Positions 52,014-57,014 are shown, counted from the first letter of the stretch. The stretch is DNA of 64,000 nt from Prevotellaceae bacterium (GCA_031279695.1 JAITIA010000140.1:12935-76934); one strand, 5' to 3'. Notes: generated by a model from the sequence alone, not told the origin. A program made the numbers and translations.

Positions 52014-52175
52014 GGCAAAAAATCCTGCCCTTACCGTCCAAAAATCTCAGTTCAATCCGAAAATCGAAGCAAAAAATTCGCCTGATCTGCAAAAAAAATG
52101 CATCTGAAATACCATTGATTTTCAGCGAAATCAAAAAAAATATTTTTTTGTTCAAAAAAAGTTTTGTACTTTTGC
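52014..52175 (+). repeat. Copy A of a three-copy intergenic repeat family (about 165 bp core) carrying a TTTG / TACTTTTG promoter at its 3' end
   Basis: About 90% identical to 55792..55955 and 56785..56945. Shared core ccttaccgtccaaaaatc..atcgaagcaaaaaattcgc.tgatctgcaaaaaaatgcatctgaaatac.attgattttcagcgaaatcaaaaaaaatatttttttgttcaaaaaaagttttgtacttttg. Confidence 0.85.
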
Positions 52176-52235
52176 GGCGCGTTTCAGTGAGATATTGACG
52201 CGCCGCTAAATTGAAAGTATTTTATAAAGAAATTT

Positions 52236-52448
52236 ATGACAAAGAGTAGTTACATCACAGGCAAAAATCGTTTTTCCGCACTTCAAAACAGTGGGGTTGT
52301 AACCGTTTTGTGTATCTTCGGTGCGTATTTTTTTAAAGTCGTGAATTTCCTTTTTAATTGTGGCACTGTTTTTGTAGAGAGAGAGAGAGAGAGAGAGAGA
52401 GAGAGAGAGAGAGAGATAATCAGCGAGTTACGCATGGTTTCGGAATAA
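52236..52448 (+). CDS. Doubtful small ORF (70 aa) spanning a (GA)20 microsatellite that would encode (ER)n; more likely part of a small non-coding transcript
   Basis: ORF lies between the repeat-A promoter and a strong terminator. Its low-complexity ERERER tract derives from the dinucleotide repeat. Confidence 0.25.
   Translation: MTKSSYITGKNRFSALQNSGVVTVLCIFGAYFFKVVNFLFNCGTVFVEREREREREREREIISELRMVSE
52377..52416. repeat. (GA)20 perfect dinucleotide microsatellite
   Basis: Direct reading of the sequence: a 40-nt uninterrupted gagaga run. Confidence 0.95.
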
Positions 52449-52473
52449 GAATTTTACATGAATTTATAATAAA

Positions 52474-52512
52474 CCCCACCGCAAAGTTTTGCATTGCGGC
52501 GGGGCTTTTTTT
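52474..52512 (+). terminator. Rho-independent terminator (ccccaccgcaa-agttttgca-ttgcggcgggg + T7)
   Basis: GC-rich 11-bp stem with one mismatch, followed by ttttttt. Confidence 0.7.
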
Positions 52513-52641
52513 ATTCGCAATTTCAGTATGTGGATTGCGGCGGATTTTGCCTGTTAATTATACAAAAACAGCAATTTATATTTATTTGCGGAGATTAATC
52601 TGCTCTATAATCGAAGAAAAAAAATTTTAAAAAATAGTATT

Positions 52642-53796
52642 ATGGGACTGTTAAACAGAAATTGGGACGGGAAAAATGCCGGCTCTCCGGATAACGGAAT
52701 TTTCGGATCGACCATATCGCGCGATCACGAGTCTGACGACGAAATGGTCTGGAAATATTCGTTCAGCAATGTAAAAAAGGGCGCAAAAATATTTGTCAAA
52801 CCCACACAACGCGCTATTTTACTGATTAATAATGAATATGTTTCGACAATCGAAGGCGGACAAACTTTTGATTTGTACGATTCGTCGAACATTCCGCTGC
52901 TTGGCGGGGTACTGAATTTTGCCACCGGTGGCGAAACGCCATACCCTGTGGATATTTGGTTTGTAAACGTCGAAACTCACCGCAACATGCTGTGGGCTAC
53001 CGGTAAAATGCATGTGCGGGATTGGGAAACCAATATTCCTGCAGAACTGTACTGCAACGGTTCGTGCGTTATCAAAATCAAAGATGTGGAACTCTTTTAC
53101 AAGACGTATATTGGCACTAAACATGGATTTTCGGTAACGGAACTGTATGATAATATGCGCAATATTATTAAAGAAGAGGTTATTGTGCATATTCTTGGGG
53201 CAATAGAAAAAGACCATATTCCGCTGTATGATTTTCAGGGCAATATGAGAAAATTCTCAACCGAGATAGAAGTCCTGCTTCAGTCCGAAGCATTCGACGA
53301 AAGAGGTATTGAACTGATTAAATTCGCAATAGGCGAAGTCGATTTTTCCGAAGAATTTAAAGAGGCAATCAAGGAATTGCGAACAAAGGAGAAATTTTAC
53401 AGTTCGGAAGCATATTTGCGCAAAGAGCAGTTTGAAATCATGAAACAGGCTGCCGCCAATCCGGGCGCAGGCGTCATGATGGGCGTGGGAATGGGCGCAG
53501 GAATGGGCGCGGGAATGGGACAATCAATGGGCAGCATGATGCAAAACGCAATGGGGTCGGTAAATCAGCAGAATGTGCCGCCGCCGCCGTTGCCTGCTCA
53601 GATATATGCCGTAATCAACGGAATACAGTCGGGACCGCTGAGTTTGGACGCCTTGCAGTCTAATATTCAGCAGGGATTAATCAACAAAGATACACTGGTT
53701 TGGAAACAGGGAATGACGGCATGGGTGGCGGCGGCTTCGCTGCCCGAACTGTCGGCTTTGCTTGGCGCTGTGCCACCGCCTCTTCCTCCGGTTTAA
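52642..53796 (+). CDS. SPFH/Band-7-like (Band_7_1, YdjI-like) protein with Gly/Met-rich linker and C-terminal DUF4339 (GYF-like) domain
   Basis: N-terminal region is collinear with B. subtilis YdjI (IFVKPTQRAILLINNEYVSTIEGGQTF vs IRPGQDAVFLNNGRVEGVF). It has a GVGMGAGMGAGMGQSMGSMMQNAMG linker. The C-terminus IYAVINGIQSGPLSLDALQ...LVWKQGMTAWVAAASLPEL is typical of DUF4339. Confidence 0.7.
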   Translation: MGLLNRNWDGKNAGSPDNGIFGSTISRDHESDDEMVWKYSFSNVKKGAKIFVKPTQRAILLINNEYVSTIEGGQTFDLYDSSNIPLLGGVLNFATGGETPYPVDIWFVNVETHRNMLWATGKMHVRDWETNIPAELYCNGSCVIKIKDVELFYKTYIGTKHGFSVTELYDNMRNIIKEEVIVHILGAIEKDHIPLYDFQGNMRKFSTEIEVLLQSEAFDERGIELIKFAIGEVDFSEEFKEAIKELRTKEKFYSSEAYLRKEQFEIMKQAAANPGAGVMMGVGMGAGMGAGMGQSMGSMMQNAMGSVNQQNVPPPPLPAQIYAVINGIQSGPLSLDALQSNIQQGLINKDTLVWKQGMTAWVAAASLPELSALLGAVPPPLPPV

Positions 53797-53831
53797 ACAA
53801 GTAAATATAAAATAATTAAATATTTATAAAC

Positions 53832-55696: not shown

Positions 55697-55791
55697 ACAG
55701 AATGGCTACGGCACAGGGATTTTTTCCATGATTAGATTTGTCCCTGTGCCACACGCCATTTAACCTGTTTTGCTGGATTTTTTGTTTTCAA

Positions 55792-56017
55792 TGGCAAAAA
55801 ATCCTGCCCTTTACCGTCCAAAAATCTCAGTTCAATCCGAAAATCGAAGCAAAAAATTCGCATGATCTGCAAAAAAATGCATCTGAAATACTATTGATTT
55901 TCAGCGAAATTAAAAAAAATATTTTTTTGTTCAAAAAATTTTTGTACCTTTGTGCTTGTGATTTATCTGAGATATAACAGATAATTAATTGAATAATAAG
56001 ATTTAAACGTAAATAAA
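55792..56017 (+). repeat. Copy B of the intergenic repeat family, with promoter TTTG...TACCTTTG (55944-55951) and a 65-bp extension shared with copy C
   Basis: Aligns with copies A and C. The extension tgatttatctgagatataacagataattaattgaataataagatttaaacgtaaataaatgg is identical in B and C. Confidence 0.85.
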
Positions 56018-56059
56018 TGGTTAGTATAATAAAAATAAAAATAAAAAATATAATACAAG

Positions 56060-56293
56060 ATGAAAACATTGACAGTTACCGATATGGAGGCGCATTTCTC
56101 TGATATAATTGGGGAAGTGATAAATGGAGAACAATTCCAAATTAGTTTTGATGCATCAAAAGAGCCGGTTGCAATGATTGTTCCCGTGCAAAAACAAAAA
56201 AAATCAAGAAAAATAGGTGTTTTGGACGGAAAAGCATTATTTAAAATAAACGGGGAGAGTAAAATTTCTGAAAAAGAATTTTTGGGAATATGA
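56060..56293 (+). CDS. Type II antitoxin (Phd/YefM-like)
   Basis: 77 aa. A 4-nt overlap (ATGA) with the downstream PIN-toxin gene gives classic TA organisation. Confidence 0.7.
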   Translation: MKTLTVTDMEAHFSDIIGEVINGEQFQISFDASKEPVAMIVPVQKQKKSRKIGVLDGKALFKINGESKISEKEFLGI

Positions 56294-56691
56294 ATTATTT
56301 ATTGGATACTCATGCATTCATTTGGGCGGCATTAGAAACCAACAAATTAAGCAAAAATGCTCAAAATATTATTCTAAACGGCAGCAATGATATTTTTGTA
56401 AGTACTGTTTCTTTTTGGGAAATATCACTAAAAACAAGAATTAATAAATTTCTATTTGAAAATATAAACATAATGGATTTTGCTCAATATGCAAAAGATA
56501 TGGATTTTGCAATATTGGATATGAAAGAATATGAAGCAATAACATTTCATAAATTACCATTAAAAGATAATCATAAAGATCCCTTTGATAGAATGTTAAT
56601 ATGGCAGGCAATAACCCAAAATATGACAATGATAAGTAAAGATAAATTATTTAAACAATATAAAGAAAATGGTCTAAAAATAATTTGGTAA
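56290..56691 (+). CDS. PIN-domain ribonuclease toxin (VapC-like)
   Basis: MNYLLDTHAFIWA start with conserved acidic residues (D6, E, D) of the PIN fold. Confidence 0.8.
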   Translation: MNYLLDTHAFIWAALETNKLSKNAQNIILNGSNDIFVSTVSFWEISLKTRINKFLFENINIMDFAQYAKDMDFAILDMKEYEAITFHKLPLKDNHKDPFDRMLIWQAITQNMTMISKDKLFKQYKENGLKIIW

Positions 56692-56784
56692 ATTTATGCT
56701 ACGCCCGCTGTTCGGACAAGGTTATACTTTGTTTGCACTATCCACTCAGGCACAGCCTCGTCCGAACAGCAGTTTTCGGGCAGT

Positions 56785-57014
56785 CGCAAAAAACCTTCCC
56801 CCCTTACCGTCCAAAAATCTAATTTCAGAACCAAATCGAAGCAAAAAATTCGCATGATCTGCAAAAAAATGCATCTGAAATACTATTGATTTTCAGCGAA
56901 ATCAAAAAAAATATTTTTTTGTTCAGAAAAAGTTTTGTACTTTTGTACTTGTAATTTATCTGAGATATAACAGATAATTAATTGAATAATAAGATTTAAA
57001 CGTAAATAAATGAG
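56785..57014 (+). repeat. Copy C of the intergenic repeat family, with promoter TTTG...TACTTTTG (56938-56945)
   Basis: Aligns with copies A and B across the whole core and the B-type extension. Confidence 0.85.

Follow-up and report, generated by a model that had tools for sequence, protein, structure and literature searches.

Why should one non-coding repeat of about 160 base pairs (bp) stand in front of three different units of a bacterial genome, two of which are toxin-antitoxin (TA) pairs? The question is raised by a stretch of 64,000 nucleotides (nt) from a Prevotellaceae bacterium (GCA_031279695.1, JAITIA010000140.1:12935-76934), the whole of which is hereafter called the window, and in which three copies of the repeat, designated A, B and C, are found. 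An original prediction had regarded the repeat as a mobile or duplicating promoter cassette that spreads VapBC-like TA modules and might carry an operator for the antitoxin, or else as the source of a small RNA. The analysis presented here favors, with a probability of roughly 0.6, a native host promoter assisted by bent DNA, which would drive one orphan unit and a pair of imported TA cassettes and would have been multiplied and homogenized by local recombination.

Three direct copies of a non-coding module

Repeat finding, alignment and profile search revealed three direct copies of about 160 bp, all in the same orientation and within 5 kb, with the following positions and parts.

52014-52174, plus strand: copy A, defined by nhmmer, promoter match and periodicity; phased A-tract array 52014-52146, -33 box TTTG 52147-52150, -7 box TACTTTTG 52167-52174
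55793-55952, plus strand: copy B; -33 box TTTG 55926-55929, 15-nt spacer, -7 box TACCTTTG 55945-55952
56785-56945, plus strand: copy C; -33 box TTTG 56918-56921, -7 box TACTTTTG 56938-56945; left 50 nt diverged, with one A-tract lost

A profile built from the three copies and run with nhmmer returned A at 52012-52178 (E=3e-55), B at 55793-55955 (E=2e-54) and C at 56783-56948 (E=2e-52), and the next best match in the window had an E value of 0.2; there are thus exactly three copies in the 64 kb. In the left 75 nt, identity was 97% between A and B, 81% between A and C, and 83% between B and C; in the right ~88 nt it was 93-97% for every pair. The copies share the left edge GGCAAAAAA, and the similarity of A to B and C stops at the final G of the -7 box; therefore, the part common to all three consists of an upstream region and a promoter, and includes no transcript. 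The copies differ by single-base insertions and deletions, and the open reading frames (ORFs) inside them are short and frame-broken, so they do not represent a coding ‘gene tail’; this competing origin, the tail of a duplicated gene, had been raised along with the original prediction and is hereby ruled out.

In its layout, the original prediction was indeed borne out. The ~165-bp core is non-coding and occurs three times in direct orientation; the extension of B and C past the core is real (67 nt, 65 of them identical); copy A is followed by a unit containing (GA)20; B and C each precede an antitoxin/PIN-toxin pair, as judged by ORFs and domain matches; and ‘duplicating promoter cassette’ is an apt description of a non-coding repeat that terminates, on its 3' side, in a consensus promoter directed toward the next unit. 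The same sample (SRR14710902) has been assembled independently in Logan; contig L081 of that assembly reproduces 52395-55840 at 100% identity and ends 48 nt into copy B, since assemblers break at true repeats.

A Bacteroidetes-type promoter at the 3' end

The canonical promoter of the Bacteroidetes sigma factor sigma-ABfr, with TTTG at -33 and TAnnTTTG at -7, is said to have been described by Bayley et al. in 2000. The last 27-28 nt of each copy of the module read TTTG-N15/16-TAC(T/C)TTTG, and the -7 box TAnnTTTG is present in all three, as TACTTTTG in A and C and as TACCTTTG in B. These boxes constitute the -33/-7 consensus of sigma-ABfr, the primary sigma factor of the Bacteroidetes (PMC7366714; PMC9330008). 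The consensus has been confirmed genome-wide in Bacteroides thetaiotaomicron, and the RNA polymerase of Bacteroidetes does not use -35/-10 promoters (PMC7366714).

When both strands of the 64 kb were scanned for TTTG-N16-21-TAnnTTTG, only 15 full matches were recovered, two of which were those of copies A and C; copy B carries these boxes too, 15 nt apart, a spacing outside the scanned range. Elsewhere in the window the consensus precedes a tRNA, the gene at 50208, and housekeeping genes, and thus the genome uses this type of promoter. The outward-facing promoter that had been read at the end of each copy is, at the level of motif, a consensus match for sigma-ABfr.

Phased A-tracts upstream of the promoter

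The ~130 bp upstream of the promoter contain six to seven A-tracts phased at 10.5 bp, with their centers at 6.5-9 modulo 10.5; copy C has one tract fewer. The spectral power at 10-11 bp was at least at the 99.8th percentile of ~12,800 strand-specific 130-nt segments, and none of 2000 shuffles reached the value of the module. The A-tract periodicity of copy A exceeded that of every other segment tested, and the other 13 consensus promoters of the window scored between the 32nd and the 97th percentile. It is to be noted that helically phased A-tracts are a classical signature of intrinsically bent DNA, and that arrays of them upstream of promoters stimulate transcription in several bacteria. We infer that the array in the module would likewise form intrinsically bent, UP-element-like DNA that stimulates transcription. 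To our knowledge, such a phased A-tract element has not been described for Bacteroidetes promoters.

Relationship of the copies to one another

The 18 informative variable sites of the alignment are not scattered; they form three runs, namely C-specific in columns 1-49, A-specific in columns 71-102, and B-specific in columns 121-159 (permutation p=2e-5). Past the promoter, B and C have the same sequence, to which that of A is unrelated. Although copy C carries 12 changes in its left part, the -33 and -7 boxes are intact in all three copies. Since independent point mutation after a single duplication would not give such a mosaic of blocks, the pattern indicates repeated recombination or gene conversion among the copies.

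The leaders and the TA cassettes

The region downstream of copies B and C was resolved into the following features.

55701-55760, plus strand: terminator-like hairpin between the stop of the preceding operon and copy B (fold z=-3.1)
55953-56019, plus strand: leader behind copy B; palindrome TTATCTG-N8-CAGATAA at 55963-55984; ends in AAATG, where homology to TA1 cassettes from elsewhere begins
56020-56693, plus strand: TA1 cassette, with Phd/YefM-like antitoxin 56060-56293 and PIN toxin 56290-56691 (Pfam); guanine-plus-cytosine (GC) content 27%
56021-56054, plus strand: decayed internal promoter of TA1, TTAGTA 56021-56026, 22-nt spacer, TATAAT 56049-56054 (alignment to relatives)
56697-56788, plus strand: long terminator-like hairpin between TA1 and copy C, with inner arms 56707-56721 and 56756-56770 (z=-4.1 and -4.5)
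56946-57012, plus strand: leader behind copy C; palindrome at 56956-56977; 65 of 67 nt identical to the copy-B leader
57103-57855, plus strand: TA2 cassette, with Phd/YefM-like antitoxin 57164-57451 and PIN_3/TIGR00305 toxin 57448-57852 (Pfam, NCBIfam); GC 29%
57103-57131, plus strand: sigma70-like promoter/operator remnant of TA2, CTGACA-N17-TATTAA (conserved block in relatives)

The hairpins upstream of B and C directly follow the stop codon of the preceding gene, so that the order at both places is terminator, presumably bent DNA, promoter, and next unit. The toxin of TA1 matched PF01850 (3e-11), and that of TA2 matched PF13470 (2e-15) and TIGR00305 (4e-14); in each pair the antitoxin gene overlaps the toxin gene by 4 nt (56290-56293 and 57448-57451). 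The designation ‘VapBC-like’ is therefore correct as regards the PIN toxins and their overlapping upstream antitoxins, but the antitoxins are Phd/YefM-like and not classical VapB; their matches (17.3 and 26.4 bits) lie under the Pfam gathering score of 29.8. The two antitoxins are unrelated in sequence, and the toxins belong to different families. PADLOC, applied to both pairs and to the operon between copies A and B, gave no match.

Hundreds of relatives of TA1 were found, and those at 83-91% nt identity (L093, 91%; L090, 89%; L091 and L092, 84%) align only to 56034/56060-56693/56695, in three unrelated contexts from which the module is absent. The homology to L093 and L090 starts at AAATGG, the final bases of the leader, and both carry TTGACA-N16/17-TATAAT before the antitoxin, in the place of which the window has TTAGTA-N22-TATAAT. 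Relatives of TA2 have at most 54% amino acid identity. In five of them, from elsewhere, a conserved block upstream of the antitoxin consists of TTGACA-N17-TAnnAT with an operator-like repeat, TGACAA..GACAAT; the same block reads CTGACA..AAACATT..TATTAA in the window. Because the relatives of TA1 lack the module, and the cassettes contain promoters of their own, the TA pairs do not travel with the repeat; judged from these alignments, each is a self-contained cassette that moves together with a sigma70-type promoter/operator of its own.

These results do not support two parts of the original prediction. The repeat does not appear to be what spreads the TA modules, as the relatives of TA1 (83-91% nt identity) reside elsewhere without it and the homology starts exactly where the leader ends. 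Nor is it likely to contain an operator for the antitoxin, as both TA families have a conserved internal promoter/operator, and the leaders of B and C are the same before unrelated antitoxins. The palindrome in these leaders is also unlikely to be a cognate operator, since it is identical before unrelated antitoxins and unlike either internal operator region. A common origin of the leaders of all three copies was also considered and rejected: the sequence of A past its promoter is 42-43% identical to that of B or C, which is not above shuffles, and the shared TGAGATAT and similar distance to ATG did not raise the similarity over that of shuffles (local p ~0.34, global p ~0.06).

One of the TA1 relatives has a local structure of its own. 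In L090, a contig from a JGI metagenome, the TA1 homolog is bracketed by 68-nt direct repeats (363-430 and 1154-1221, 96% identical) and is preceded by another TIGR00305 PIN gene, so that it is part of a TA array with its own repeat. On folding, this repeat gave no attC-like hairpin. At 1290-1362, 3' of the array, lies a perfect 7-nt tandem repeat, (GGCTCAC)n.

Search for further copies and for signs of mobility

Exact patterns of 22-31 nt, taken from the element and the leader, were used to search for the module in sequence collections. The pattern ATCGAAGCAAAAAATTCGCNTGATCTGC had 0 matches in GTDB genomes and JGI metagenomes, and two other patterns had 0 matches in IMG/VR. Against plasmids and phages, blastn gave only short, low-complexity matches; nhmmer over 173 related loci (1.68 Mb) recovered only L081, from the same sample; and the spurious 66-amino-acid ORF of copy A, compared with ~15 billion predicted proteins, matched only P0093, the corresponding ORF of copy B on the same contig. 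Overall, this shows that the element is not widespread; the collections seem to lack the source genome, and the total of three copies therefore applies to the 64-kb window.

Mobility, another part of the original prediction, received no support. The search for terminal or flanking inverted repeats gave low-complexity A/T matches only, without a pair that would enclose every copy of the unit; no short direct repeat of the kind left by target-site duplication is common to the three sets of flanks; no integrase or transposase was present in the 41-63 kb portion of the window to which protein annotation was applied; and no recombinase lies within ~10 kb. Pattern scans, BLAST and nhmmer, by which further copies in relatives and collections were sought, found none outside the locus. 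We infer that the duplication proceeded by local recombination and not by transposition.

Three classes of known element were rejected on these grounds. A miniature inverted-repeat transposable element (MITE) or a repeat derived from an insertion sequence (IS) should have had the terminal repeats, target-site duplication or transposase that are lacking here, and an invertible promoter would have had flanking inverted repeats and an invertase nearby. At one end of an integron array lie the gene for an integron integrase, attI and Pc, and the attC sites of the array are imperfect palindromes that fold as hairpins, with R'' (RYYYAAC) on the 5' arm and R' (GTTRRRY) on the 3' arm. The module itself has no significant fold, the hairpins upstream of B and C have no R boxes, and there is no integron integrase in the annotated portion; the hairpin upstream of C has GTT on its 5' arm and AAC on its 3' arm, the reverse of attC.

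The unit behind copy A and the SPFH operon

Copy A is followed by a small unit and then by an operon, as listed.

52174-52206, plus strand: GC-rich hairpin directly after promoter A, GCGGCGCG-N17-CGCGCCGC (fold z=-3.5), unrelated to the leader of B and C
52236-52515, plus strand: unit downstream of copy A, with an orphan 70-codon ORF (52236-52448), then a terminator-like hairpin and T-run (52483-52515)
52642-55696, plus strand: three-gene operon between A and B, encoding an SPFH/Band_7_1+GYF_2 protein, a 244-amino-acid membrane protein, and a 361-amino-acid Com-type zinc-ribbon protein (Pfam)

The 70-codon ORF specifies a hydrophobic core and an (ER)n tail, the latter encoded by a perfect (AG)20.5 at 52376-52416. 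A search of 1.84 billion representative proteins returned no real homolog; the only matches were to low-complexity ER repeats, and the ORF was thus rejected as a conserved gene. A change of one unit in (AG)20.5 would shift the frame of the tail, and one alternative frame (ORF 52358-52630) is open through the terminator and nearly to the start of the SPFH gene; the repeat may act as a slipped-strand switch. Being a homopurine mirror repeat, it could in addition adopt an H-DNA structure.

The contiguity of the SPFH operon is supported by L081. Since the promoter scan found no consensus promoter in 52516-52641, between the terminator and the operon, it may be speculated that copy A feeds the operon by read-through. 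The SPFH/Band_7_1 protein has GYF_2 at its C-terminus, and the zinc-ribbon protein has a C-terminal transmembrane segment. The genes constitute a conserved module; homologs (68-69% amino acid identity; L082-L084, L087) occur in other Bacteroidales, either in the order zinc-ribbon and then SPFH+SHOCT, or adjoining a DUF87/FtsK-like ATPase.

Setting of the locus and other repeats in the window

The three copies lie in a 6.4-kb accessory island (51453-57884), bordered on the left by an oxidoreductase gene and on the right by a convergent SpoU methylase gene. The island consists, in order, of a long palindrome, copy A, the (GA)20 unit, the SPFH/membrane/zinc-ribbon operon, a hairpin, copy B, TA1, a hairpin, copy C, and TA2; the GC content of the window as a whole is 42%. 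Besides the two bordering genes, the annotated 41-63 kb include genes for UDG, an outer membrane protein, IMPase, thioredoxin-like proteins, and AAA_14/DUF4143. The best relatives of the GlpD protein of this genome, from Dysgonomonas and termite-gut ‘Tannerella’ metagenome-assembled genomes (MAGs), are at most 77% identical in amino acids; by this measure, the source is a Bacteroidales lineage without a close sequenced relative. Among GlpD-anchored loci of 80 genomes, in which the proteins were at most 77% identical and synteny did not extend past GlpD, no orthologous empty site was found.

At the left edge of the island, directly 3' of the oxidoreductase gene, is a near-perfect palindrome of ~270 nt (51495-51775), present as a single copy in the window. 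Folded as DNA, it reaches -59 kcal/mol (z=-9.1), a stability attained by 0 of 200 shuffles; it corresponds to no Rfam family, apart from a weak sub-threshold match to Moco, and may represent either a large structured RNA or a MITE-like element.

Several other repeats and paralogs were recorded in the window. A 3515-amino-acid ORF at 3557-14104 (minus strand) consists largely of degenerate 42-nt (14-amino-acid) tandem repeats, with dozens of repeat families. At 33582-33835, upstream of a consensus minus-strand promoter (33356-33327), are 11.5 tandem copies of the 22-nt unit TTTCAGTAAAACCTGTATATCT with 93% matches, which could be a regulator-binding or iteron-like array. At 63260-63374 and 63404-63482 (minus strand), a 32-nt tandem repeat (3.6 copies) adjoins a match to the Rfam group II intron, whose 54 bits exceed the gathering score, and the AAA_14/DUF4143 ATPase gene at 62100-63221. 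Several paralogous genes for thioredoxin-like (AhpC/TSA, DUF4369) lipoproteins are found at 42807-45027 and 60721-61902; in two adjacent ones, a stretch of 300 nt is 74% identical (43780-44079 versus 44582-44881).

Proposed explanation and its alternatives

In the explanation that we prefer, the module would be a native Bacteroidales promoter, in which ~130 bp of bent A-tract DNA are fused to a sigma-ABfr -33/-7 promoter; it would have been copied three times inside the accessory island, and homologous recombination or gene conversion would continue to transfer sequence between the copies. Each copy, placed immediately behind the hairpin that terminates the unit before it, would fire into the unit that follows: A into the orphan (GA)20 small-ORF or leader unit, and possibly into the SPFH operon by read-through; B into TA1; and C into TA2. 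The TA pairs would be horizontally acquired, AT-rich cassettes, and their own TTGACA/TATAAT-type promoters would be unusable by the Bacteroidetes polymerase and decayed here. As the promoters of the cassettes appear decayed and are of a type that this polymerase does not use, the module would act as their host-compatible promoter.

Several points weigh against this explanation. The firing of the promoter and the starts of transcription are predicted from sequence only, and the AT-rich spacers between the -33 and -7 boxes (16, 15 and 16 nt in A, B and C) fall short of the 17-21 nt found in the 13 remaining full matches. The cassettes are marked as foreign, and as driven by sigma70-type promoters, solely by their motifs and their GC content. 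An unseen fourth copy could be the source of the strongly diverged left part of copy C, and the high identity between copies may reflect recent origin and not selection for function. Finally, the local nature of the module is argued from three copies in 64 kb and from searches of collections that apparently lack the source genome.

Among the alternatives, the one to be taken most seriously, though unlikely, is that the copies arose neutrally when cassettes were inserted. They would be the duplicated homology arms that remain after circular or linear DNA, with a TA pair and part of the promoter region on it, integrated by one homologous crossover, or after unequal crossing-over; in the additional copies the promoter would be incidental, and the TA pairs would use their own promoters. 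Bracketing of TA1 by the direct repeats B and C is what Campbell-type integration predicts; recombination among the copies is evident from the block mosaic; the TA1 homolog of L090, from another metagenome, likewise stands between two direct repeats, which are 96% identical and have another sequence, of 68 nt; and the internal promoter of TA2 is just mildly degenerate (CTGACA-N17-TATTAA). That of TA1, on the other hand, is without a -35 box and has a 22-nt spacer, and -35/-10 promoters are not used by the Bacteroidetes polymerase in any case (PMC7366714). Moreover, copy A is not beside a TA cassette and shares the promoter module alone, cut exactly at the -7 box, and the -33/-7 boxes have stayed intact in all copies despite the 12 changes in the left part of C. 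A lower probability is given to a dispersed repetitive or mobile element, MITE-like or of the Correia/REP (repetitive extragenic palindromic) promoter-repeat type, with more copies elsewhere in the genome and a hot spot at this locus. It is disfavored by the lack of terminal inverted repeats and target-site duplication, by the absence of another copy from the other 59 kb of the window, by the 0 exact-pattern matches in GTDB, JGI metagenomes and IMG/VR with nothing meaningful in phages and plasmids, and by the protein search (~15 billion) and the 1.68 Mb of related loci, the former giving just the copy-B ORF of the same contig and the latter none; its appeal lies in the sharp edges of all three copies, in the left part of copy C, which is 17-19% diverged next to a right part that is 95-97% identical, as if from another family member, and in the fact that copy searches of the source genome itself cover the 64-kb window only.

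The remaining alternatives assign another role to the upstream 130 bp. A platform for a protein, such as a regulator or a nucleoid-associated one of the xenogeneic-silencer type, that co-regulates the three units through five to seven iteron-like sites, (G/C)CAAAAAAT(C/T), is very improbable. A similar 9-10-nt motif does recur at module positions 4, 28, 48, 59, 79, 120 and 141, and the leaders of B and C share the palindrome TTATCTG-N8-CAGATAA near the expected start of transcription; yet the motif is essentially an A-tract with weak flanks, so that its recurrence is explained by phasing alone, iterons would not be spaced so irregularly (24, 20, 11 and 20 nt), the annotated 41-63 kb contain no regulator gene nearby, and copy C lost one site with its promoter unchanged. 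The probability is close to nil for the last alternative, a small RNA encoded on either strand, which the original prediction had also considered. In its favor are the conservation of an intergenic sequence of suitable length and a near-consensus minus-strand box in copy B (TTTG-N19-TAATTTCG), but the corresponding -7 box in A and C, TGATTTCG, has two mismatches; the promoter scan found no plus-strand promoter upstream of A or C, and none common to the three copies that could transcribe the conserved 130 bp; and no terminator is common to the copies. Rfam gave nothing relevant, either for the whole window at the gathering threshold or for 51400-57900 at the permissive E<=10, and the folds of the copies were not significant on either strand (z -0.3 to -2.3), five of six being indistinguishable from shuffles. 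The small RNA was thus rejected.

Implications

Since Bacteroidetes cannot use -35/-10 promoters, each horizontally acquired gene needs a promoter of the host type. The known solution is the insertion of an IS element with an outward promoter; the locus described here suggests a second route, in which a native promoter module would be copied by recombination ahead of foreign TA cassettes with decayed promoters. A bolder and rather doubtful extension, which we rank below the by-product of insertion and above the dispersed element, is that the module is a transposase-free promoter ‘adaptor’, spread by recombination, that switches on and insulates incoming cassettes with unreadable sigma70-type promoters, the order being terminator hairpin, bent-DNA promoter, cassette, and that TA cassettes may build up in arrays that are not integrons, with host-specific repeats between them, as in L090 with its unrelated 68-nt repeat. 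If true, this would amount to an unrecognized way of capturing and domesticating cassettes. An active module would offer a compact, insulated and probably strong promoter part for Bacteroidales engineering, and a test case for DNA curvature in sigma-ABfr transcription; in addition, the direct repeats B and C should then delete TA1 at a measurable frequency, which would allow post-segregational retention by a chromosomal TA pair to be tested. At present, it is a three-copy, lineage-specific feature of one MAG, as read from its sequence.

Comparison with known systems

The module is like canonical sigma-ABfr promoters in that all copies end in TTTG...TAC(T/C)TTTG followed by an untranslated leader, and in that the same consensus precedes a tRNA and housekeeping genes of the window. 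It differs in its 15-16-nt spacer, below the 17-21 nt of the other matches in the window, and in being part of a 161-bp unit repeated at 81-97% identity. Activation by phased A-tracts or UP-type elements is exemplified by Clostridium perfringens plc, Bacillus phage promoters, and E. coli rrnB P1, and phased A-tract promoters have been studied in Synechocystis (PMC9825172). The module resembles such curved-DNA promoters in having six to seven helix-phased A-tracts directly upstream of the -33 box, with a periodicity that is extreme for the window, but its array is unusually long (~130 bp) and is known here from sequence alone.

The invertible promoters of Bacteroidales are flanked by inverted repeats of 15-30 bp and are turned by a site-specific invertase. 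They are similar to the module in being promoter segments of ~160-230 bp that occur as several similar copies in a Bacteroidales genome (PMC8748976, PMC4747536), whereas the copies studied here have no common flanking inverted repeats, no invertase nearby, and a single orientation. Chromosomal integrons, such as that with the Vibrio cholerae repeats, contain homogeneous, host-specific attC repeats and often TA cassettes with their own promoters. The locus superficially resembles them in its layout of alternating repeats and cassettes, in the high similarity and lineage specificity of its repeats, in its small AT-rich TA cassettes that are found elsewhere in other contexts, and in the occurrence of the TA1 relative of L090 in a TA array with its own 68-nt repeat. 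The module, however, has neither a hairpin fold nor R''/R' boxes, the annotated portion contains no integron integrase, and the module lies upstream of its cassette and contains a promoter, unlike attC, which lies downstream and contains none.

In Bacteroides, outward promoters are provided by IS1186, IS942, IS1187 and others upstream of cfiA, by IS1168 for nim, and by ISBf1 for cepA (PMC9330008). Here as there, genes with a promoter that Bacteroidetes cannot use would obtain one of the host type from a portable piece of DNA, although the module is confined to one locus and has no transposase, terminal inverted repeats, target duplication or other signs of transposition. By analogy, these IS-borne activating promoters of cfiA, nim and cepA appear to be the closest functional parallel of the module, minus the machinery of transposition.

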